Under the pieces are notes generated by a model. That model did not search any database. It had not been told where the DNA came from and saw only the letters and a list, made by a program, of their open reading frames with translations. A DNA stretch of 62,086 nucleotides, the filler included, from an uncultured Thermoplasmatales archaeon (lineage in GTDB: Archaea; Thermoplasmatota; E2; DHVEG-1), in assembly GCA_964517155.1 (NCBI GenBank). It is 6 parts of 6 records of this genome, joined end to end, with 100 filler letters (N's around TTAATTAATTAA, not from the genome) between each part and the next. Parts side by side here need not be neighbours in the genome. Positions count along the whole stretch, not along the records: positions 46,108 to 57,935 come from CAZFAZ010000009.1; 5 more parts are not named here. The stretch is one strand, 5' to 3'. Numbering within the stretch: position 1 is the stretch's first letter; every line of letters begins with the position of its first letter. Both the position numbers and the translations under genes were made by a program. This document shows, one piece after another, positions 1,552-56,289 of the stretch.

Positions 1552-2220
1552 GTGAACAAAATAAAAGATATCGATGAAATATTTACAATACTTAAAAAAG
1601 AGCTTAAAAACTACAAAGCACCAGTGGTCTCAGGACAAAAATGGGAAAAAATCAAAAAAACACCATTTACAACATTAATATCTTGTATACTTAGTCTTAG
1701 AACCAAAGATGAAGTAACAGACAAAGCATCGATAAGACTTTTTGAAAAATATGATACACCTCAAAAACTTGCAAATGCAGATATAAAAGCTATCGAGGAA
1801 TTGATATATCCGGTAGGTTTTTATCATACAAAAGCAAAGACAATAAAAAAAATATCACAAACGTTACTTGATAAATATGCGGGAGAAGTACCAGATGATT
1901 TTGATGAGCTTTTAAAATTAAAAGGCGTGGGACGAAAAACTGCAAATATCGTGATGGTTTTTGGTTTTAACAAAAAAAATTATATCCCAGTTGATGTACA
2001 TTGCAATCGCATACCAAATAGACTTGGATGGATAAAAACAAAAACACCAGAGGAAACAGAAAAAAAACTAAAAGAAATACTTCCACAAAAATACTGGTAT
2101 GATTTTAATAATTTATTTGTACAATTCGGCCAGACAATATGTACGCCGATATCGCCTTTTTGCAGTAAATGCCCAATAAATAAATACTGCAAAAAGCAAG
2201 ATGTTAAGACACACAGATAA
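1552..2220 (+). CDS. nth: Endonuclease III (HhH-GPD, 4Fe-4S)
   Basis: LKGVGRKTAN HhH motif, IPVDVH catalytic Asp, C-x6-C-x2-C-x5-C cluster motif. Confidence 0.95.
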   Translation: MNKIKDIDEIFTILKKELKNYKAPVVSGQKWEKIKKTPFTTLISCILSLRTKDEVTDKASIRLFEKYDTPQKLANADIKAIEELIYPVGFYHTKAKTIKKISQTLLDKYAGEVPDDFDELLKLKGVGRKTANIVMVFGFNKKNYIPVDVHCNRIPNRLGWIKTKTPEETEKKLKEILPQKYWYDFNNLFVQFGQTICTPISPFCSKCPINKYCKKQDVKTHR

Positions 2221-2338
2221 AAAAATAACCATATTTTAATATAAAACAATTTTTTTCTCTTATCAATAAACTAATTTTTGAAATAACCGATTAATTTATA
2301 AATAAGACTAAACATACAAAATTTATTAGGCGGATGGG

Positions 2339-7710: not shown

Positions 7711-9486
7711 TTATGGGTTTAACATTCCACCAAATGCTACCTGCACTATATAACTAGTAATTGCTACAGTCCATACAAAAGGTACAAAATAAAGTAATGT
7801 TAGATATTTATGACTTCCTCTTAAAACTTTAAGTGTTAAAGCCATCATGAAACAATGTATAACCATTACAAAAAATATTATATAATAATTTTGAGCATAC
7901 GCTTCAGCCGGCACAGAATATAAAATCTGACCCATATTTAAGTTTGTATCAGGATTTGTAAGCACACTTCCTTCTTCAAGCATAATGCTATTTAAATGAT
8001 CGCCTATTATAAGAGAGATATAAATACAAAAAGCAATACCAAATGTGATACCTGCAAATAACGCGATACTTGTATTTACAATAGTTAATTTTTTAACGCG
8101 CAAATCCCTAATTTTACGAATATTTTCAGAAATCATGCGTGAAACACGACGAGGATTTGCAGCAGCATAGGTTGCTTCACGAAACATTTCACTAGAACGC
8201 TGAATAAAATTACTACCTGTTTCAACACCAAACCATTCCCATGCGGCATCATCATCGATACGTGTTCTTAAACGGCGATAAAGATCACGAACATGTCCTG
8301 TTAAAACACCGTAATCTTTTTCACTAAGATAATAAACAGAATCATTAATTCTTCCACCACGCATTGTAGAAATGGAGCCAAGTGCTGGTAAAAAACCAAG
8401 AAAGTTTTTTTCTTTACGAGAAATATTTTGCTCTTCAATAAAAACCTTTATTCCAACAATTAATAAAGGTGTGCAAGCAGATGCAAATAATAATTCAAAT
8501 GTTAAAAAGTCAAATACAGGTAAGGCTAACTGATACTTGATAAAATAAAGCCCTAATCCAACAACGACACATAGCGCTATTGATAGTTTTAAAAACTTGC
8601 CTAGTTTTTCCTCGTTTTCTCCTTTTTCACCTGTAACATGCCATATTTCATCCTGAGGAATCATTGCTTTTAAAAGATACATAAGCAGTCCTTCACTGAT
8701 AATCATAAGAAAACAAGATAAAAAAATAAAAGTGTTCATATCCTCAGTACCCATAACAATAGGTAAAACAATTCCAAGGCTCATCACAAAAATAATTGCA
8801 ATAAGCATTGAAACATATACTTCGTTTAAAATAACCACGTTTTCATTACTTGATTCATAAACGGTTTTGTATTCCTGTATAACTGCTTCTTGCTCTGTTT
8901 CAATAAACTCACGATGCTCAACACCACTGTCAAGACTCTGGGAGAATCTATCTAAAAAATCTTTGAAGATTTTACTAGGCGTTCTTGCAGATATAAAACG
9001 AAATGTTTTAGAAAGTGGTAGTTTCCATTGACTAGAAAGTACACTTATTTTTTTAAGTTCTTCACCAAGTGCACCATATGCTTTTTTACCACCCAGCATA
9101 TCAATGATGTCCTTAAGTGCTAAATCAGATATTGCAAGAACACGCAGATGCGTTATAAAAAAATGCATTTTTGCATTAATATCATTTTCACGGTTTTTCC
9201 AGGATATATACGGATAAAAAACACCTAGAAAAATAGGCACAATGCCTCCAATTATAAATGCAGTAAAATTAAAACTAATAGGATAAGGAAGTACTATATT
9301 TAATATGAAAGGTGTTACAAAAATCAAAACGCTAAGCATTATCAAAGGCATAAGAGTTTTTTTATAAAATTTAGAAGGATCTTCTAGTGCACGATACGCT
9401 ATTTTAAGCTGAGTACTAAAGCTTTCTTTTTTTGTATCTTTCTTTTTTTTATCTTTTTTAGATTTTTTTTGTTTTTTATCTGCCAT
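7711..9486 (-). CDS. flaJ: Archaellar membrane platform protein FlaJ/ArlJ
   Basis: Polytopic 591-aa protein, ARTPSKIFKDFLDRF T2SSF-like motif, follows flaI. Confidence 0.92.
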   Translation of the reverse strand: MADKKQKKSKKDKKKKDTKKESFSTQLKIAYRALEDPSKFYKKTLMPLIMLSVLIFVTPFILNIVLPYPISFNFTAFIIGGIVPIFLGVFYPYISWKNRENDINAKMHFFITHLRVLAISDLALKDIIDMLGGKKAYGALGEELKKISVLSSQWKLPLSKTFRFISARTPSKIFKDFLDRFSQSLDSGVEHREFIETEQEAVIQEYKTVYESSNENVVILNEVYVSMLIAIIFVMSLGIVLPIVMGTEDMNTFIFLSCFLMIISEGLLMYLLKAMIPQDEIWHVTGEKGENEEKLGKFLKLSIALCVVVGLGLYFIKYQLALPVFDFLTFELLFASACTPLLIVGIKVFIEEQNISRKEKNFLGFLPALGSISTMRGGRINDSVYYLSEKDYGVLTGHVRDLYRRLRTRIDDDAAWEWFGVETGSNFIQRSSEMFREATYAAANPRRVSRMISENIRKIRDLRVKKLTIVNTSIALFAGITFGIAFCIYISLIIGDHLNSIMLEEGSVLTNPDTNLNMGQILYSVPAEAYAQNYYIIFFVMVIHCFMMALTLKVLRGSHKYLTLLYFVPFVWTVAITSYIVQVAFGGMLNP

Positions 9487-9500
9487 CTTCTTTTTACCTT

Positions 9501-11153
9501 TTATAATGAAATTGGTAGACCTTTTAGCCCTTCTCTATAATAACTCCAGATAAACTGGACTACCTCATAATAATCCATTATTTCTTCTTCAACCATTCTT
9601 TCTAAAATCCTTTTTCGTTCATCATACAAATTATATATCTCTGCAAGATTTTGATATCCTGCGGTTTTTGCAATTCTCTCCTCAAGAATATAGCTATTTC
9701 GATTCGCAGTAAATTTATGCTCATCTTTTAGCGCATCCCATTCAAATGCTTTACGAGACATTATGCCGTCTACAGCTCTGTTGTAACCCTCTATTTCATC
9801 TATGTTTGTAACCCGTCTCATAAGTTTTCCATCACGCTCAATTGCAAGCTGTATTACTACAAAATCAAGATTATCCATGAATGTCTTTGGAACATTTATT
9901 GGATCACTAGTAAAACGCTGTATAACTTTTGTAACAGTACCTGCGTGAAACGTAGTCATAACTGGATGACCTGTTTGCATAGCACCAAAAACAATGTTTC
10001 CCTCTGCACCTCTAACCTCACCAGGTATTATATATTCAGGTCTTGAACGCAAAGCAGCTCTTAGAAGGTCAAACATTGTAACCCGTCCTTCTTCAGGGCC
10101 TGATTCTTTTGTCAAAAGCTGTTGCCATACTTTATGAGGAACCTGCATTTCAGGTGTTCCTTCTGCTGTATAAATTTTTCTATTAGGTGGGATAAATGGA
10201 ACTATTGCATTCATAGTTGTTGTTTTACCACAGGCGGTACCACCGCATATGAAAAAGTTACGGCCGTATTCACAGCATATCCAAAGATATGCACCAATTC
10301 CTGCACTCAGCGTTCCCCATTTTATAAGTTGTGTAACACTAATTGGTGTTTCAGTAAAACGGCGTATTGTCATACTTGGTCCTTTTATACTTATAGCATT
10401 ACTATAAACAAGATTACCACGACTTCCATCTGGGAGCACTCCATCGACTATGGGCTGTCCCTCACTTACAGGAGTGCCCATTTTTTCACTTAGTTTTCTA
10501 GTAAAAAGATCTGCTTTTTCTTTACTAATCTCTATATTTGTTTTAATCATGCCAAATATTTTATGTATTAAATGAATTTTTTCACCAGTAACAATATGGA
10601 TATCTTCAAGCCAAGGATCACGCATAAAGCATTCTATTTCACTGGTTCCAACAATATTTTTTAAAACATAATACTCAATTACTCTTTTTTGTATAGAAGT
10701 TGCTTTTATTGTATCAATTTTTTTTTTAAACAAACTTTTTTTACTATCGTCTTGTGTTTTTTCTGCTCTTTCATCGACTTGTATGGTTTCATCAATTAAT
10801 TCTTGTAGAATTTTTTTAAGATCTTCATCGGTTTTTACACTTTCTTTTTGTGGTGCTTTTTTAACAATTATTTTTAGTAAAAGATCATATTTTTTTTGCT
10901 CATCAGGACTAAGTCGCGGTTCAATTGAATAATATTCTTTTTCATCCATATCTGCTGTTTTAAAAATATTAACAAAGACAAGACCTTGTGCAGGATATAT
11001 TAAATTAGGGGATTTTTCATCTCTTACTTCAAAGGGTAGATGAGAATAAAAATCAGGTTTTCCTATTTTTTTCTCGATTTTTTCGACGTATTCTTTTAAA
11101 TGAGGATTTTTAGCAAGTAACTCATTTGTTTCTTCTTCTGTCATCTTTCCCAT
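9501..11153 (-). CDS. flaI: Archaellar motor ATPase FlaI/ArlI, downstream copy
   Basis: Walker A GGTACGKTT, RSRPEYIIPGEVRG, MQTGH..TTFHA His box. Confidence 0.92.
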   Translation of the reverse strand: MGKMTEEETNELLAKNPHLKEYVEKIEKKIGKPDFYSHLPFEVRDEKSPNLIYPAQGLVFVNIFKTADMDEKEYYSIEPRLSPDEQKKYDLLLKIIVKKAPQKESVKTDEDLKKILQELIDETIQVDERAEKTQDDSKKSLFKKKIDTIKATSIQKRVIEYYVLKNIVGTSEIECFMRDPWLEDIHIVTGEKIHLIHKIFGMIKTNIEISKEKADLFTRKLSEKMGTPVSEGQPIVDGVLPDGSRGNLVYSNAISIKGPSMTIRRFTETPISVTQLIKWGTLSAGIGAYLWICCEYGRNFFICGGTACGKTTTMNAIVPFIPPNRKIYTAEGTPEMQVPHKVWQQLLTKESGPEEGRVTMFDLLRAALRSRPEYIIPGEVRGAEGNIVFGAMQTGHPVMTTFHAGTVTKVIQRFTSDPINVPKTFMDNLDFVVIQLAIERDGKLMRRVTNIDEIEGYNRAVDGIMSRKAFEWDALKDEHKFTANRNSYILEERIAKTAGYQNLAEIYNLYDERKRILERMVEEEIMDYYEVVQFIWSYYREGLKGLPISL

Positions 11154-17917: not shown

Positions 17918-19444
17918 TTATTTTTGCTTGAATTCCTCTTTTATATATTGACCCATTTTTCTAATGTTAAGAGTATCCATGTAAAATAAGAGGTCTTCTT
18001 TAGTAAATTCCTTGAATAATGCTAAGATGCCCAGGTATATAGCTAGACCCATTGCTGCAAAAACAAGTAGATGATACCAGCGAGTAATCCAACTGATGAA
18101 ATCATAATTGTATAAAAGAACATACATGATTGTGGCCATGATACCTGCTGCAAAAGCATGCAAAAGGATTCGTATATTTCCTTTTGATCCTGTTAGTTTA
18201 TACGACATGATGCGAGTATACACAAGGGAAACAGCAAATGATACAACGGTAGCAATAGCAGCTCCAGTAGCTCCTAACCCAAAGAGTTTAACGCCACCTA
18301 ACAACTGTATATCCTTTGGGATTAATAAAACATTTAATGTTAGATTAAACACAAGCATGATAATAATCCTATTTTTATTGATCCCTGGTTTATTCATGCC
18401 ATTGAATTGTGCTTCATAAGATGTTGATAGGCTTTTGAAAAGAACCGCAAATGGTAAGATTTGTAACATGGGAACTGCTTGCATCCAACCTGAAAGAAGG
18501 ATAAAAGCGGTGGGTTCAGCTAGAATCATCAGGCCAAACACCATAGGAAAGACAATGAGGCTGAGGTGACGTTCTGAGTCAACAGTTAATTTCTTTATTT
18601 GTGTTATGTTTCCCAACTTATGAAGCGCTGAATAGGTTGGAAAGATAAGCACACCAATTGCACTGGTAAAAAGGGTGATGAAATTAGATAATCTGTATGC
18701 CGCAAAATAATAGCCAACATCCGCTGAAGCCCAAAACAATTGAATCATCACTTTATCAATATTATGCATGATAACACTACTAGTTGTCACTAGCATTAAG
18801 GGAAGAGCGAAAACAGCATAACTTTTGATATATTCTTTTGTTGGTTTTTCTATTGGATAGTGTCTAAAAAACAAAAATACCATTATTAGATTTACTAGTT
18901 CACCAGCTACATACGTCCAGGCTAGAGCTAGTGGGCCCATTTCTGATATTGCTACATATACTATTGCAGCAGTGCGGACAACACCGTTTAATAAAAAGGG
19001 TATTTGAATTCTTGCTATTTCTTTTCGAGCTTTAAATGTACCTATGAATGTACTTACAATTTGTTGAGCTATCCAAAAAATAATAATGATGTAAATTGCT
19101 GCTAAGTGATCTGGGCTTTCAAAGCCTCTACCTAATACATTTGTCCAAATGTATAAGCTTGCTAAAAGAATGCCTATTGCAGATAGGAGAAGAACTGTTT
19201 TAAGGCTTAGATGTGTGCCAATGCATCTGCCTAGATTTTTTCCTTCTGAGACTCGCTTGACATGAGCTGAAGTAACGCCTAAATTACAAAAAACAGTAAA
19301 CAAGGTGACAAAGCCCATGGCAAAGGATACAAGACCGTAATCTGTAGGGCTCATGAATCTAGCGATGAAGAACAATCCTAGATAGCCGAGTCCACCATCT
19401 ATGATCTTTGTACTCATGATGAGAACGCTTTTTCTAGCAATCAC
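17918..19444 (-). CDS. Oligosaccharide flippase (Wzx-like, MOP superfamily)
   Basis: Many TM helices; ARFMSPTDYG, IDKVMI...VGYYFAA and GATGAAIAT motifs. Confidence 0.9.
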   Translation of the reverse strand: MIARKSVLIMSTKIIDGGLGYLGLFFIARFMSPTDYGLVSFAMGFVTLFTVFCNLGVTSAHVKRVSEGKNLGRCIGTHLSLKTVLLLSAIGILLASLYIWTNVLGRGFESPDHLAAIYIIIIFWIAQQIVSTFIGTFKARKEIARIQIPFLLNGVVRTAAIVYVAISEMGPLALAWTYVAGELVNLIMVFLFFRHYPIEKPTKEYIKSYAVFALPLMLVTTSSVIMHNIDKVMIQLFWASADVGYYFAAYRLSNFITLFTSAIGVLIFPTYSALHKLGNITQIKKLTVDSERHLSLIVFPMVFGLMILAEPTAFILLSGWMQAVPMLQILPFAVLFKSLSTSYEAQFNGMNKPGINKNRIIIMLVFNLTLNVLLIPKDIQLLGGVKLFGLGATGAAIATVVSFAVSLVYTRIMSYKLTGSKGNIRILLHAFAAGIMATIMYVLLYNYDFISWITRWYHLLVFAAMGLAIYLGILALFKEFTKEDLLFYMDTLNIRKMGQYIKEEFKQK

Positions 19445-21235: not shown

Positions 21236-24200
21236 TTATGATGTTCTGTATGCTTGGAAGTCGTATACTCTTGGTTGGTATACTCCGTATCCGAATCCTG
21301 AGCCTAGTGTGAATGTTATTTGTATTTTGTCTATTTGTGTGGTTGTGAATGTTTTGTATGCATAGCTGTTATCTGGCCATGTTGTGAAGTAGCATGTTTG
21401 TTTTAGTGTGTTTCCTTGGTATAGTTTGACTGTCATTTGTGTTAGTTGGCTTATTTTTCTAGCGTTTATTTTTATTTGGTTGCATGATATTGGTTGGTTG
21501 TATGTTAGTGTGAGTGCGGTGTCTGTTTCTGTGTAGTCTCCTACTTTGTAGTAGTGTGAGTATGTTGATGTTGATGTATCGCGTGCGTTGTTTGGGTTTT
21601 GCCATCCTGTGGTGGTTATGTATCCTGTTGGTCTGGTCCATCCTTGTATAGATGTAGTTGTGAATGTTTTTTGAGTTCCGTAGCTTGTTCCGGCGCTGTT
21701 GCTTGCTACTGCTCTGTAGTAGTAGGTTGTACCGCTGGTTAGTCCTGTTAGGGTTTTAGTAAATATTCCTGTATTTGTTTGTGTGGTGGGTGTTGTTGTG
21801 TATCCGTAGCTTGGTGTTGTTCCGTATTGGAAGTATACGTTGCAGCTGCTGGCTCCTCCAAGGTTGGTTAAATCACCGCGAACTACAGCGCTATTGGTTC
21901 CAACTGAGCTGGTGGTTAGTGTTGTTACGGTTGGGGGTGTAATTGATCCGCTGCTTGCGGTAGTAAAGGTGTATTGGTTGCCGTAACTTGTTCCGGCATT
22001 GTTGCTTGCTACTGCTCGGTAGTAGTAGGTTGTACCTGGGTTTAAGCCGCTGATGCTTCTGCTGAAGCTTCCTGTTGAGGACATTGTTATTTGTGTTGTG
22101 GTGTATCCGTAGTTTGTTGTTGTTCCGTATTGGAAGTATACTGTGCAGCTGGTTGCTCCTCCCATGTTTGTTAGGGTTCCTTGTAGTGTGGCTGATGTTG
22201 GCCCTATATTGTTAGCGGTGTTTGTTGTTACTGTTGGTTGGGTTGTTGTGCTGCCTGTAGTTGTAAAGCTTTTTAGTATGGTTTTTCCTCCTTGGCTGTT
22301 CCACACGTGGGCGTAGGCGACGTAGTTTGTATTTGGTGATAATCCTGTGAATGTGTTTGTGTATGTATATGGGCTGTTGTATGTGCCTGGTTTTGTCCAG
22401 TCTGCTACCGTAGTAGTGCCTTGTTTTATGTAAAATCTTAGTGTGCATGGTTCTCCTCCGTCATCCGTTAGTGTCGCACTTAGTGTTACTGAGTTGGTGC
22501 CTATGTTTGTGGTTTCAAGGCAGCAGACATTTGGTATTGTTATTTCGTCTAGTGTTGTGAATGTTTTATCTGTTCCATATACAGTTCCTGCATTGTTGGC
22601 TGCGACTGCTCTGTAGTGGTATAATGTGTTGCTTTGTAGGTTGTTTATGTTTGTAGTAAATATTCCTGTGGTTGTTTGTGTGGTGGGCGTTGTTGTGTAA
22701 CCATAGCTTGGTGTTGTCCCATATTCGAACCATACGTTGCAGCTGGTTGCTCCACCCATGTTTGTTAATTCTCCTCTTATTGTTGCAGCATTAGTACCAA
22801 TTGTACCTGCAGATAGGGTGGTTACTGTTGGTTCGGTGTTTGTGCCGCCTGCGGTTGTGAATGTTTTTTGAGTACCGTAGCTTGTTCCGGCGCTGTTGCT
22901 TGCTACTGCTCTGTAGTAGTAGGTTGTACTGCTGGTTAGACCTATTATGCTTGTAATGAATTTTCCGGTGGTTGTTTTTGTAATGGGTGTTGTTGTGTAT
23001 CCGTAGCTTGGTGTTGTTCCATATTCGAACCATACGTTGCAGCTGCTGGCTCCTCCAAGGTTTGTTAGTTCTCCTTGTACTGCTGCAGCGTTGGAGCTGA
23101 TTCTACCTGCAGATAGGGTTGTTACTGTTGGTTCGGTGTTTGTGCTGCCGGTGGTTGTGAATGTTTTGTCTTCTCCATATGTGGTTCCTGCTGTGTTTTT
23201 TGCTACTGCTCTGTAGTGGTAGGTTGTTTCTTGATTTAGATTATTTATAATTTGGTTGAATTCTCCTGTGGACGATTTGGTAACCCAGTTTGTTTGTAGT
23301 CCGTAGGTTGTGGTGGTTCCGTATTCGAATTTGACATCGCAGTTGTTGTCTCCTCCTAAATCGGTTAAATCACCATGAAGTGTAGCACTGTTACTATCGA
23401 TATTGTCAGCATCTAAAGTACTAACACAAGGATATAGTATTGTTCCTCCATTTATTGTTACTATTGTGTTATTAATTTCACTAACCTGTAAAAGATTGTT
23501 TCTAACTTGTAATCCCATATTGTATGTACCCATTGTATTATATGTATAACTTGGGTTTGGATTCCAATCAACCCAATAATTAGTTAAAATTGTTCCTGTA
23601 TCCCAGTTTCCATCGCCATCCCAGTCAATGCGCATTTTATTTATTGAGTTGCCAGGTCCCGGACTGCTTTGTGAGAAATCAAATGAAATAGGATTGCCCA
23701 TAGTGCCAGTATATGGTCCACCAGCATTTGCTGTTGGTCCAGTTGGTGGTTCGTCATCTGTAAATAATACTACTGTAATGTATAGCTTTTTGTATTCACT
23801 AAAAGCCCAATGTATATCTCTTGCTATTGCTTCTATTGTATAATCACCGGTATTGCTCCAAGAATGGCTAGCAGTATAAGCCTCTCCTGAGCTAAACGGC
23901 CCTATCCAGTCCGTAGCTGAGTAATCACCCCAATAAATCTTATAGTATAAGTCATCGCCATCAGGATCTGTTGCGCTAACTGTATATGAATAACTTTTAC
24001 CACGTTTAACTTTAGTAGGGCCTGTAAGAGAGGGCGTTGAGGGTGGATTATTTAGGGGCTCCTCAATTATGATAGTATGCGTTCCATAAGTTAAAGATTC
24101 AAGTCCATGCATATCTCTTGAATATATTTTAATTGTAAAGTCTCCAGTTTTTGTATAAGTATGCGAAAAAGGTCGAGGAACATTACCGGGCTGTAAAATG

Positions 24201-25963
24201 CTCCAATCTGAAACTGTTCCGTCTCCCCAATCAACTTTGAATTGAATCTTATCCCCATGAGGGTCATCACCTATAGCAGAAAAGATATTTTCCTTATTTT
24301 TTATACCTGAAGTAGGTCCTGAAATAGATGGAGTATATGGTGGAAAATTTTGAGTTACATCAATTATTCTTTGATGATAAAATAAAATCCATGTTTTAGA
24401 TTCAAAACCATATCTATTAACCCAACAATCCCAAAATTCAAGTATATCATTGGGGTTATCGTTTTCTATTATTGTCCAGATTTTACTAAACTCGCCTGAT
24501 ACATAATCTCCATATTTATAATTACTCCAAGTTGGATAGTCCATAACAAATGTTCCATCAAATAAATCCCATAGAACCCCTGCAACGGCACCTTCTACAA
24601 GATGTCCATCCCAATCACCTGAGGTTACATAGTCTGCATAATAGCCGTATTCAAAATCATGTCCGCCAAAATTACAATTGTTTTTTACTGCACAAGGTAA
24701 AAATTCTGCCCAACCCTCGCTTAGAGCAGCCCCGGGATTTGATACAGTATATACATAATGAGGCTTAATTACCTCTCCTTCAGGTAGATTATCTCCATAT
24801 GCCTTATACATTATTGCATGTGAGTATTCATGAATATGGACATTATCCAACCATTCATGTCCACCTTCAATTTCTATAAAATCAAATTTAAAACCGGCGA
24901 TATTAATCATACGAAATTGACTTTCATCTCGGGGCCAGTTGACAGCTGCTCTATCTCTATTCCAATTCACTTTATTTTTTAACCAAATATATGTATCAAC
25001 AATATTATTAAGAATTTTTAAAGATCCCCTAGTGTTTGTTCCAATTGTGCCTTGAATCTCGGTATCTGAATCTATATCATACCAATCAGGACTGATCCAA
25101 GCATATACCGACCAAATAGGACTTGGGTATATTCTATCTGTAACCTCACAGATGTTATATTCAGGATCAAGGTTAGAATTTTCTGAATATATTATAATTT
25201 TAAATTTACCGTCCGGAAGACCTGTAAATTTAAAGTTCCCCTGGTCATCTGTTCTATACCTAGCAACACAGTCAGAATATCCTTCTTGGAATAATTCAAT
25301 TCTTACATATTTTGGGTAAAAATAACCTGTTTCATATTCATCCTTAACACGAAAGTTGCCTGATAGTGTATGGCCATCTTTGTTGTTTGTAGATTTCTCA
25401 TTTTTAATTATCTGCACGTCTTCGAATTCTGAGATTATCTCGCCGTTATCATTATCAACTGTGCTGTACAAAGAAATAGGGTTCTCACTTGCATCTATAA
25501 CACCATTTAAAGCTGAAAAATAATATGCTGTTTGCTCTTCTTTGAAAACTTTATCTTCATCGGTTATTTTTGCATAAATTGCGTAGTCCTTTTCTTGATT
25601 TAGTTTTATTTTGAGAGGTATTTTTATAGTTGAATCTTCTGTTATTTCTCCTTTCCATTGGAGTTCTCCTTCTGATAAAATCATACTTGAAGGAATCACA
25701 AAATCTATACGTGCATTTGGAACGTAATGTTGGGATGATACTTGTAGTATCAGGGATATATCTTTACCCAAGGTTAAGTCGCTATTTGTTTTAAAGTTTA
25801 AAGAAAATATTGATTCAGAAGATATGTATTTTATAGTATCTTCATTTACTATAGTTTGTTCATCGTTTGTTTTGTCTATTGTATATACTGAGTTTGCGGT
25901 TGTTAGACTTGTTGTTAAAAACATGCTTATTATTAAAATTGTTATTATGTTCTTTTTGTTCAT
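21236..25963 (-). CDS. Secreted zinc metallopeptidase (gluzincin-type) with PKD and six FN3-like repeats
   Basis: Signal peptide, HEYSH + ALSEGWAEF, DWGDG PKD modules, repeats of PTVTT..VWFEYGTT.SYG..YYRAVA. Confidence 0.8.
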   Translation of the reverse strand: MNKKNIITILIISMFLTTSLTTANSVYTIDKTNDEQTIVNEDTIKYISSESIFSLNFKTNSDLTLGKDISLILQVSSQHYVPNARIDFVIPSSMILSEGELQWKGEITEDSTIKIPLKIKLNQEKDYAIYAKITDEDKVFKEEQTAYYFSALNGVIDASENPISLYSTVDNDNGEIISEFEDVQIIKNEKSTNNKDGHTLSGNFRVKDEYETGYFYPKYVRIELFQEGYSDCVARYRTDDQGNFKFTGLPDGKFKIIIYSENSNLDPEYNICEVTDRIYPSPIWSVYAWISPDWYDIDSDTEIQGTIGTNTRGSLKILNNIVDTYIWLKNKVNWNRDRAAVNWPRDESQFRMINIAGFKFDFIEIEGGHEWLDNVHIHEYSHAIMYKAYGDNLPEGEVIKPHYVYTVSNPGAALSEGWAEFLPCAVKNNCNFGGHDFEYGYYADYVTSGDWDGHLVEGAVAGVLWDLFDGTFVMDYPTWSNYKYGDYVSGEFSKIWTIIENDNPNDILEFWDCWVNRYGFESKTWILFYHQRIIDVTQNFPPYTPSISGPTSGIKNKENIFSAIGDDPHGDKIQFKVDWGDGTVSDWSILQPGNVPRPFSHTYTKTGDFTIKIYSRDMHGLESLTYGTHTIIIEEPLNNPPSTPSLTGPTKVKRGKSYSYTVSATDPDGDDLYYKIYWGDYSATDWIGPFSSGEAYTASHSWSNTGDYTIEAIARDIHWAFSEYKKLYITVVLFTDDEPPTGPTANAGGPYTGTMGNPISFDFSQSSPGPGNSINKMRIDWDGDGNWDTGTILTNYWVDWNPNPSYTYNTMGTYNMGLQVRNNLLQVSEINNTIVTINGGTILYPCVSTLDADNIDSNSATLHGDLTDLGGDNNCDVKFEYGTTTTYGLQTNWVTKSSTGEFNQIINNLNQETTYHYRAVAKNTAGTTYGEDKTFTTTGSTNTEPTVTTLSAGRISSNAAAVQGELTNLGGASSCNVWFEYGTTPSYGYTTTPITKTTTGKFITSIIGLTSSTTYYYRAVASNSAGTSYGTQKTFTTAGGTNTEPTVTTLSAGTIGTNAATIRGELTNMGGATSCNVWFEYGTTPSYGYTTTPTTQTTTGIFTTNINNLQSNTLYHYRAVAANNAGTVYGTDKTFTTLDEITIPNVCCLETTNIGTNSVTLSATLTDDGGEPCTLRFYIKQGTTTVADWTKPGTYNSPYTYTNTFTGLSPNTNYVAYAHVWNSQGGKTILKSFTTTGSTTTQPTVTTNTANNIGPTSATLQGTLTNMGGATSCTVYFQYGTTTNYGYTTTQITMSSTGSFSRSISGLNPGTTYYYRAVASNNAGTSYGNQYTFTTASSGSITPPTVTTLTTSSVGTNSAVVRGDLTNLGGASSCNVYFQYGTTPSYGYTTTPTTQTNTGIFTKTLTGLTSGTTYYYRAVASNSAGTSYGTQKTFTTTSIQGWTRPTGYITTTGWQNPNNARDTSTSTYSHYYKVGDYTETDTALTLTYNQPISCNQIKINARKISQLTQMTVKLYQGNTLKQTCYFTTWPDNSYAYKTFTTTQIDKIQITFTLGSGFGYGVYQPRVYDFQAYRTS

Positions 25964-54718: not shown

Positions 54719-55249
54719 ATGGGTGTTAAAGAAAAACGCCTAGTTGAAAGTGTGCTGTTTTCTGCAAGTAAACCAGTTAGTGTAAACGAAATAAAAGAGG
54801 CAACAAGCCTCAGTCGCAACCAAATTAAAACTACTCTTGAAGAATTGATACAAGATTATAATGTTACTCGTAAAAATGAAACAAGCATGGAAGTTATAAA
54901 AGCAGGTGATAAATTTATAATGCAGGTGAAAAAACAGTATGCCGAGCAAAGTGTTATGATTTCAAAACCTGAAATTGAAAGTAATCTTTTAAAAACTCTT
55001 ACACTTATTGCTTTTCATCAACCTGTTAAACAGTCAAACCTGCGCCGTATGATTGGTCCAAAAGCATATGATCATGTCGACGAGCTTGTAGGACATAAGC
55101 TTATACATACAAAAAAACATGGTGCAACAGAGATGCTTACTACAACTAAACTTTTTCCTGAGTATTTTGGTATCAATTCAACCAATCCTAATGAAATTAA
55201 AACGTTTCTTATGAAAAAAGTAGCAAATAACGCAAGCAAAAAAGAATAA
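54719..55249 (+). CDS. scpB: SMC-Scp subunit ScpB
   Basis: VESVLFSA.KPV, LKTLTLIAFHQPVKQS, TT..F.EYFG. Confidence 0.92.
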   Translation: MGVKEKRLVESVLFSASKPVSVNEIKEATSLSRNQIKTTLEELIQDYNVTRKNETSMEVIKAGDKFIMQVKKQYAEQSVMISKPEIESNLLKTLTLIAFHQPVKQSNLRRMIGPKAYDHVDELVGHKLIHTKKHGATEMLTTTKLFPEYFGINSTNPNEIKTFLMKKVANNASKKE

Positions 55250-55346
55250 AAAAATATTGTTTTTTTAATTATTGATAATAGTTGTAAAGAAACTGGGATA
55301 GAATTGCACAATAAAGCCTTTTAAACCCTTTTTACAAAGTATAATT

Positions 55347-55460
55347 TAGAGTTGGAACCTCGGGGGAGAAAAAAAATAATTTTTTCTCATCCTTTCACCT
55401 CCTCTCCTTACCACCTCCTAAATTCTCCCCCCTAGTCCAACACTAAACAAGTTTTTTATT
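55347..55460 (+). ncRNA. Candidate ~100-nt small RNA with anti-Shine-Dalgarno loops
   Basis: TTTTAAA box ~28 nt upstream, closing stems GTTGGA/TCCAAC and GGGGGAGAA/TTCTCCCCC, internal TCACCTCCT and CACCTCCT, downstream T tract. Confidence 0.55.
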
Positions 55461-55524
55461 TAAAAACAATAATATTTTTTCAATAGATTTATACAATAAA
55501 AAAATATACACCTAAATAGGATGC

Positions 55525-56289
55525 ATGGTTGATAAAGAAAAACTTTATGATAAAATAAAAGACATACAAACAAAAGATGAGTTTGAAAAAAATATAAATC
55601 AGATTCAAAAAGAATATGATTTTCTTTTTGATGAAAACACAGCAGCATTTTTAATAGTCGACGAACTAGGTAGAAACAAAGAAAACATATATAAAATAGC
55701 AGATCTAAAAGATGGAATTGAATGTACATTAAAAGGAAAAGTAACAAAGATAAATAATACACGAAGTTTTAACAGGAAAAATGGTTCAAACGGTCGCGTT
55801 GTAAACATAGAACTATCTGATGAAACAGGAAAATGCACTCTTGTTTTATGGAATAAAGATGTGGAGCTTATCAAAAACAAAAAAATAAAAAAAGAAAGTA
55901 TCGTAAAAATTATAAATGGATATGTTAAAAACGGTTATACAGGTCTTGAAATAAATGTTGGAAGATATGGTTTAATAAATATCCTGCAAGAAGATGAAAT
56001 AGAAGTCAAAAAAATAAATAACTCTGAGAATCTAGTCAAGGGAGAAATAACAGATATTCAGCCAACACGTGCTTTTTTTAAAGATAATGGAGAGTTTGGT
56101 TTTGTATCAAATGTTACTATAAAATCTAAAGGAAAAGATTTAGAAATAACATTTTGGAATGAAAAAGTAAAAGAGATACAAAATTTTAAGATTGGTCAAA
56201 AAATTCAGATAGAAAACATAGATAAAAGACAAAAAAACGGAAATATAGAACTTCATTTAAATGGTGCTGGAAAAATCAAAAAAATTTAA
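55525..56289 (+). CDS. Replication protein A-like OB-fold ssDNA-binding protein
   Basis: AA.LIVDELG, F.RKNGSNGRV.NIELSDETG..LVLW, second OB fold. Confidence 0.85.
   Translation: MVDKEKLYDKIKDIQTKDEFEKNINQIQKEYDFLFDENTAAFLIVDELGRNKENIYKIADLKDGIECTLKGKVTKINNTRSFNRKNGSNGRVVNIELSDETGKCTLVLWNKDVELIKNKKIKKESIVKIINGYVKNGYTGLEINVGRYGLINILQEDEIEVKKINNSENLVKGEITDIQPTRAFFKDNGEFGFVSNVTIKSKGKDLEITFWNEKVKEIQNFKIGQKIQIENIDKRQKNGNIELHLNGAGKIKKI

Follow-up and report, generated by a model that had tools for sequence, protein, structure and literature searches.

Small RNAs with C- or CU-rich seeds, such as RsaE/RoxS and LhrC, are found in Firmicutes, where pyrimidine-rich unpaired motifs target Shine-Dalgarno (SD) regions, some of these RNAs being multi-copy, and where the seeds themselves are short (UCCC or CCCC). 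To our knowledge, few archaeal regulatory RNAs have comparative support, almost none of those come from uncultured lineages, and sRNA41 and sRNA154 are confined to Methanosarcina. The streptococcal csRNAs are described as sibling small RNAs of one regulon, which display an unpaired anti-SD sequence together with CAU (present in 53 of 61), possess their own promoters with direct-repeat sites of the transcription-factor regulon, and are proposed to block translation initiation (PMC3091779). For Methanosarcina mazei, a review describes sRNA41 and sRNA154 (loop 2) as intergenic RNAs that mask ribosome-binding sites and repress translation (PMC5867862). The locus described here belongs to a small-RNA family that occurs in nearly every genome of a family-level archaeal clade with clear covariation, and that combines recognisable promoters, operator-like sites and a loop copying the mRNA-docking sequence of the ribosome. 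A search of the literature on small RNAs of this lineage and on archaeal pyrimidine-rich anti-SD small RNAs revealed no account of the family.

The window, that is, the whole stretch of 62,086 nt that was analysed, consists of separate contigs of an assembly of an uncultured Thermoplasmatales archaeon (91 contigs, 1.59 Mb, 32% G+C) joined by N (440 N in total), so that gene neighbourhoods are not readable across its contig joins; positions 19626-40458 are contig C7, and the element lies on contig C9, where window position 55346 equals C9:9239. The flanking genes encode ScpB (Pfam 7e-29) and an OB-fold, RPA-like protein. The first-pass annotation, made from the sequence alone, had described a GC-richer candidate stand-alone small RNA with multiple anti-SD motifs at this place, and sequence inspection found its boxes, stems and motifs all where it had put them, with a G+C content of 41% in the unit against 31.7% across the window. 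Table 1 sets the element out as a plus-strand gene for a small RNA of about 110 nt, the ends being deduced from the predicted promoter and terminator: it has an archaeal BRE/TATA promoter, a long closing helix, a G-free loop and an oligo-T tract, and the annotated stand-alone reading holds up. The annotation had also recognised no RNA family, and Rfam agreed, no family reaching its gathering threshold at the element: in the Rfam 15 scan of the whole window the gathering-level matches were three tRNAs elsewhere, the best matches of a permissive scan of 55200-55560 scored 26 bits (threshold 60) and 17.7 bits (threshold 73), and 20 loci including relatives and paralogs gave 0 matches.

Table 1. 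Features of the predicted small-RNA gene, its promoter block and related loci. Positions without a contig label are window positions.
Feature	Position	Strand	Basis
Predicted small-RNA transcript, about 110 nt	55348-55457	+	ends deduced from promoter and terminator
Promoter block at the element	55274-55345		
Two tandem operator-like sites, about 21 nt apart, G.TAA.A..TGTAAAGAA and GG.TA.A..TTG.ACAA.AA	55274-55314	+	
BRE-like A-rich AAAGCC, then TATA box TTTTAAA (55319-55325)	55313-55325	+	sequence
Outer closing helix P1, 5' arm AG-A-GTTGGA	55348-55356	+	RNAfold; covariation
Inner closing helix P2, 5' arm GGGGGAGAA	55362-55370	+	RNAfold; covariation
Weak A-run/U-run hairpin AAAAAA-TAA-TTTTTT	55371-55385	+	sequence
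G-free pyrimidine-rich single-stranded loop with conserved core	55386-55422	+	composition, predicted unpairedness
Variant loop motif CTCATCCT	55386-55393	+	sequence
Anti-start-codon CAT in loop	55388-55390	+	
Anti-SD copy 1, TCACCTCCT	55395-55403	+	
Anti-SD copy 2, CACCTCCT	55412-55419	+	
P2 3' arm TTCTCCCCC	55423-55431	+	RNAfold; covariation
P1 3' arm TCCAAC-A-CT	55436-55444	+	RNAfold; covariation
Oligo-T tract (six T), archaeal-type terminator	55452-55457	+	sequence
Promoter-block copy, own genome	C30:~2170-2260	+	
Promoter-block copy, own genome	C41:~24690-24800	-	
Promoter-block copy, own genome	C51:~9030-9130	+	
Promoter-block copy, own genome	C54:~8900-8980	+	
Promoter-block copy, own genome	C77:~17950-18050	+	
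Small-RNA paralog, own genome	C1:15086-15178	-	R2
Small-RNA paralog, own genome	C86:15144-15260	+	R2
Small-RNA paralog, own genome	C56:17244-17337	+	R2
Small-RNA paralog, own genome	C52:19892-19997	-	R2
Paralog / LSM pair, own genome (G000)	C56:17244-17337 / C56:19891-20079		
Paralog / LSM pair, own genome (G000)	C52:19892-19997 / C52:16445-16642		
Paralog / LSM at 2.5 kb, other genome	G023:C22:18734-18840 / 21388-21576		
Paralog / LSM at 2.5 kb, other genome	G064:C16:7705-7808 / 10289-10477		
Units with 3' C/U-rich stretch (L121, L127, L132, L141, L142, L151)	3' ends		

RNAfold returned exactly the two closing stems that had been proposed, 55345-55356/55436-55447 and 55362-55370/55423-55431, around an open loop, the outer one having been annotated as TAG-A-GTTGGA (55347-55356) with TCCAAC-A-CTA (55436-55445); the energy of -25.4 kcal/mol (z = -3.1) was equalled by 1 of 200 shuffles. 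Both stems covary in relatives, the comparison by which the first-pass annotation had wanted its stems to be judged. Covariance model R1, for which the window sequence was the sole source, was used to align 63 distinct sequences; in that alignment standard pairs fill 93.6% of the cells in the 17 modelled pairs, and changes on both sides were observed at all 17, in 292 cells, with a covariation score of 0.681 against 0.235 ± 0.012 after shuffling (0/500 as high) and at most 0.185 with the partners slid. When paralogs were included (99 sequences), 91.4% of cells were paired, 525 cells carried changes on both sides, and the score was 0.771 against 0.247 shuffled; both alignments were fitted to the structure, and the shuffle controls overstate significance since related genomes are not independent. 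Changes on both sides were likewise seen across relatives at 8/8 pairs of helices 1 and 2, and compensatory changes at 9/9 pairs of helix 3, with 93-95% of cells paired. MAFFT with RNAalifold on the unrefined sequences recovered the A/U hairpin only, with the outer arms misaligned, and was replaced by the model-based alignment. An alignment-free comparison, in which foreign arms were taken from units less than 70% similar, gave a mean of -27.4 kcal/mol for a unit's own two arms against -16.1 for foreign ones, and in 55 of 62 units the own pair ranked among the top 5%. The alternative hairpin GAGAAAAAA/TTTTTTCTC that had been annotated is present as well: the A/U hairpin, extended by GAG/CTC to 55366-55388, competes with 3 bp of P2, and in 64 of 105 distinct family units a run of A and then one of T stand between the loop and the 5' arm.

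By BLAST, 18 further loci with 71-91% identity were detected in related genera, and R1, whose match to the element itself spans 55346-55458 at 153 bits, found the unit in 60 of 108 family genomes (25 of 40 genera), once per genome save for one genome with two. Conservation with covariation in 60/108 related genomes indicates that the element is more than chance. A broader covariance model, R2, rebuilt from the R1 matches, was applied to a class-wide sample, where 66 of the 67 family genomes gave 2-5 matches apiece; outside the family it matched 2 of 4 sister-family genomes and 0 of 32 genomes in another family, and weak matches (E about 1e-4) appeared in 8/25 and 2/13 genomes of two further families. 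Five R2 matches, the window copy included, were observed in the own genome, so that the picture of a lone gene gives way to that of one member of a multi-paralog family. The own-genome paralogs each have a TATA box, a closing helix of their own and a C/U loop, and 40 further paralogs from relatives follow the same plan. Many paralogs also carry a second short C/U-rich stretch (e.g., CCCATCCC or CCTCC) between the closing helix and the T tract, and this extra stretch suggests that the 3' tail may be a second interaction site.

In 18 of 29 loci scpB is the immediate upstream neighbour of the type-1 gene, the kind found in the window, and the hairpin of that gene is followed by T's. Both would suit a reading in which the element is no RNA gene at all and instead a hairpin that terminates scpB or belongs to its 3' UTR, a dispersed repeat, or a palindrome in the DNA. 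This reading is extremely improbable in our judgement, for it leaves aside the conserved promoter of the element, the paralogs elsewhere with their own TATA boxes, the conservation of the loop rather than of the stem alone, and the 10 of 29 loci at which neither scpB nor an RPA-like gene is nearby. A match to a dispersed repeat, the outcome that the annotation had named as fatal to its reading, did not appear: BLAST found the whole type-1 unit once in the own assembly, where the other matches cover the promoter only (the upstream 40-75 nt recur elsewhere), and the four own-genome paralogs, each with a promoter of its own, have differing helix arms. A cis-acting leader of the RPA-like gene was considered and rejected; since that gene follows the type-1 gene in only 8 of 29 loci and neither neighbour is present at 10, the element is not a leader of the downstream gene. 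In addition, two of the five own-genome small-RNA paralogs lie 2.5-3.3 kb from the two Sm-like (LSM) genes of that genome, and a 2.5-kb arrangement recurs in two other genomes; paralog and LSM are unlinked in most other genomes where both are listed, and the proximity may be plain synteny.

The promoter was found to be shared beyond the small RNA. A block of about 75 nt, in which a pair of operator-like sites spaced by about 21 nt is joined by an A-rich BRE-like stretch, TTTTAAA and TTTTTACAAA, precedes five small ORFs in the own genome and is oriented towards the ORF every time; the ORFs on C30, C41, C51, C54 and C77 have 34, 116, 37, 44 and 33 codons, respectively, those of 37 and 44 codons being paralogs of each other. 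BLAST detected the block at extra loci in relatives too, and the tandem-site block is kept upstream of 34 of 63 type-1 units. What the block governs looks like a conserved regulon of small proteins together with this small RNA, and the tandem sites probably bind a transcription factor. As the recurrent block points into the unit, the predicted transcription start falls at about 55348-55350, which is the base of the outer stem and about 23-25 nt past the TATA box. A perfect palindrome, TTAACAATTGTTAA, was observed between the TATA box and the RNA start in the paralogs L124, L128, L129, L130, L133 and L155 (about 1-70); it lies farther upstream in L054 and L058-L062, and about 60 nt upstream in the type-1 genes of one genus. 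The palindrome looks like a repressor operator, on which ground different paralogs seem to answer to different regulators.

The element qualifies as an independent transcription unit by its predicted promoter and terminator, both of which are strand-asymmetric in the 100 family units with enough flank for counting. Among public sequencing runs, four DNA runs were listed as containing the stretch, two of them possibly its source, and no RNA run was listed. A TATA-like box starting 24-38 nt before the closing helix was observed on the plus strand of 56/100 units and on the minus strand of 12/100, and a run of at least five T within 30 nt after the helix in 63/100 and 19/100, respectively; among the type-1 units alone (n = 63), the T run follows the helix in 45 on the plus strand against 16 on the minus strand. 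This placement of promoter and terminator favours the plus strand and makes the minus-strand sponge that the annotation had offered as an alternative unlikely. A functional minus strand would yield a AGGAGGUG-repeat RNA soaking up 30S subunits, or an mRNA for a tiny peptide (MRK...), and it does read AGGAGGTGAAAGGATG, a textbook SD followed by ATG, and folds as well as the plus strand (z = -3.3). Base-pair strand tests, which are weaker than promoter and terminator placement, were mixed: in the strand-symmetric comparison of the two arms, 75 transitions correspond to G.U if the plus strand is read and 44 if the minus strand is; counts on model-fitted alignments, which lean plus, were 69 against 10 and 111 against 37 in favour of plus; helix energies showed no preference (29 vs 31 units); and the duplexfold G.U count was higher on the minus strand (267 vs 122), a comparison confounded by base composition, the excess being attributed to pairing of the G-rich complement with U runs. 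The peptide mRNA was rejected, as the 52 units with GGATG show shifting frames of 1-38 codons, five of them stopping right after M, and the other copies of the shared promoter likewise point plus-wards, so the minus-strand reading is regarded as very improbable. A coding function of the plus strand was also set aside: the unit in the window lacks an ATG, such a codon is present at some position in 30 of 63 type-1 units, and the lengths of the A and T runs differ between homologues.

The loop holds 0 G and 7 A in 37 nt, and partition-function folding of 57 units gave a mean unpaired probability of 0.92 in the loop core against 0.34 elsewhere in the molecule. All 12 family genomes with a complete 16S gene share the 16S 3' end GGATCACCTCCT (RNA GGAUCACCUCCU); the tail was taken from these relatives, the organism's own 16S gene lying outside the assembly. 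The first motif of the loop, UCACCUCCU, is a 9-nt identical copy of this tail, with CAU 5 nt upstream, and together with the predicted unpairedness this identity bears out the annotated display of anti-SD sequence in an unpaired loop. Two single-contig genomes from one genus show a match to the archaeal 16S model at positions 57-295 only (G009:C1:64382-64594 and G085:C1:1155513-1155723); the remainder of the gene may be interrupted, very divergent or absent from the assembly.

Differential conservation was observed within the loop. Among 105 distinct units, CCUCC occurs in 91 (being absent from 14), CACCUCC in 43, the full 9-mer in 30, CAUC in 95 and CUCUCC in 88. CACCTCC occurs five times in the window against 1.6 expected, a number reached in 2 of 100 shuffles, and two of the five copies stand 16 nt apart in the element. 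The annotated expectation that CACCTCC would be conserved thus held for 43 of 105 family units and failed in both same-genus relatives, where the motif is degenerate: the first copy there reads CCAUUCC or CCCUUCC, and the second is gone. The anti-SD copies are present, yet the most conserved stretch is a longer pyrimidine core, CATCCTTT..CCTCTCCT.ACC (RNA CAUCCUUU..CCUCUCCU.ACC), to which the motif-centred view has to be adjusted. About 25 nt of this core are nearly invariant across paralogs and genera, more than SD pairing requires, which hints at another partner.

SD usage itself is evident in the own genome, where among 1179 ORFs of at least 150 codons an SD/anti-SD duplex of at most -6 kcal/mol lies upstream of the first ATG in 33%, against 8% of in-ORF controls. 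The genomic mode of GGAGG is at -15, and the complement of the loop starts GGAGG at -12, within range and short of the optimum. When CAU is placed on the AUG, pairing at 16 or more of 24 positions is seen for 41 of 2492 gene starts (1.6%), compared with 105 of 35923 ATGs that are not starts (0.29%). This approximately 5-fold enrichment of in-register complementarity at gene starts is for the most part another way of saying that the loop complements a generic initiation region.

The reading that we favour, though we hold its truth to be evenly balanced, is that the RNA acts in trans, masking SD and start-codon regions and competing with the 30S subunit for a set of mRNAs, a function that we infer, along with transcription, the RNA ends, pairing with mRNAs, the targets and the effect on translation. 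The two-part long helix would close the RNA and hold out the G-free pyrimidine-rich strand of about 37 nt, presenting CAU and then one or two copies of the 16S tail; since both elements sit in the exposed strand, the loop could pair with mRNAs at the ribosome docking site (SD and AUG). The RNA would then compete with the 30S subunit for translation-initiation regions, and in consequence a group of SD-led mRNAs would be translated less and would perhaps also be less stable; a transcription factor acting on the tandem sites would set the level of the RNA. What the analysis shows computationally is the gene, with its structure and conservation, and the match of the loop motif to the 16S tail.

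Searches for individual targets gave negative results. RNAduplex ranking of the loop against 10702 candidate starts showed no enrichment (1.5% at -20 kcal/mol or below, against 1.2% of 1450 in-ORF controls), and the ranking is uninformative because purine-rich coding sequence pairs with a C/U loop regardless. No unique extended target was found in the own genome or four relatives: the complement of the 23-nt core, with at most three mismatches in the five genomes, matched the small-RNA genes themselves only, and elsewhere in the own genome no site matched more than 5 of the 25 overlapping 16-nt windows (at most two mismatches) of the 40-nt loop complement. These results weigh against the idea of a loop that serves as guide or antisense to a single structured RNA or mRNA rather than to initiation regions at large, an idea for which the long conserved core would speak, in that it suggests one conserved partner. 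A guide for 16S rRNA was tried and rejected, pairing with pre-16S being no better than that of shuffled loops (125 of 200 as good); overall, we regard a single-partner guide as quite unlikely.

The main rival to SD masking keeps the same gene and structure and sees in the loop a platform, or else a sponge, for some protein with affinity for C/U- or U-rich RNA (e.g., Sm-like or KH), acting without mRNA pairing. The near-invariance of the core beyond what SD pairing needs is in its favour, as are a run of at least five U within 12 nt upstream of the CAUC in 80 of 105 distinct units, the oligo-U tail after the helix, and the lack of a specific mRNA target in the searches of the own genome and relatives. 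Two Sm-like (LSM) genes are present in the own genome and LSM genes in 107 of 108 family genomes, which says little, as LSM genes are common in archaea generally. A protein platform does not account for the nine nucleotides shared with the 16S tail or for a CAU placed at a workable distance, and we hold it possible, if somewhat doubtful.

If SD masking is true, csRNA-like control of initiation by sibling small RNAs would have arisen independently in archaea, and the family would offer a handle on the regulons of organisms that cannot yet be grown, among them the tandem-site promoter, which small-protein genes also use, and the palindromic operator of other paralogs. A wider version, in which the mimics of the 16S tail act across the lineage and differently regulated paralogs jointly titrate SD sequences transcriptome-wide, appears unlikely to us; it would imply a shift between SD-led and leaderless or weak-SD mRNAs whenever particular transcription factors fire, and thus a global translation governor made of RNA. 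The covariance models R1 and R2 could seed a new RNA family entry.

In comparison with known systems, the family is filed as working like the csRNAs and sRNA41/sRNA154 and not as a member of either, since the logic is shared and the sequence, fold or domain of life is not. The bacterial small RNAs RsaE/RoxS and LhrC are unrelated in sequence, and their short seeds contrast with the 25-nt core observed here. For sRNA41 and sRNA154, going by their described mechanism, the likeness lies in archaeal intergenic small RNAs whose loops carry an anti-ribosome-binding-site sequence; they belong to another lineage, whereas 66 of 67 genomes carry 2-5 paralogs of the present family, and its loop contains a 9-nt copy of the 16S tail. 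The streptococcal csRNAs are the closest analogues: they share several similar genes per genome, own promoters, operator-like repeat sites and an unpaired anti-SD sequence with CAU. They differ in being bacterial and in placing the unpaired region between two stem-loops, whereas the archaeal RNA would close a loop of 40-60 nt with one long helix, depend on a BRE/TATA promoter and oligo-T-only termination, and exert a function that is here predicted.
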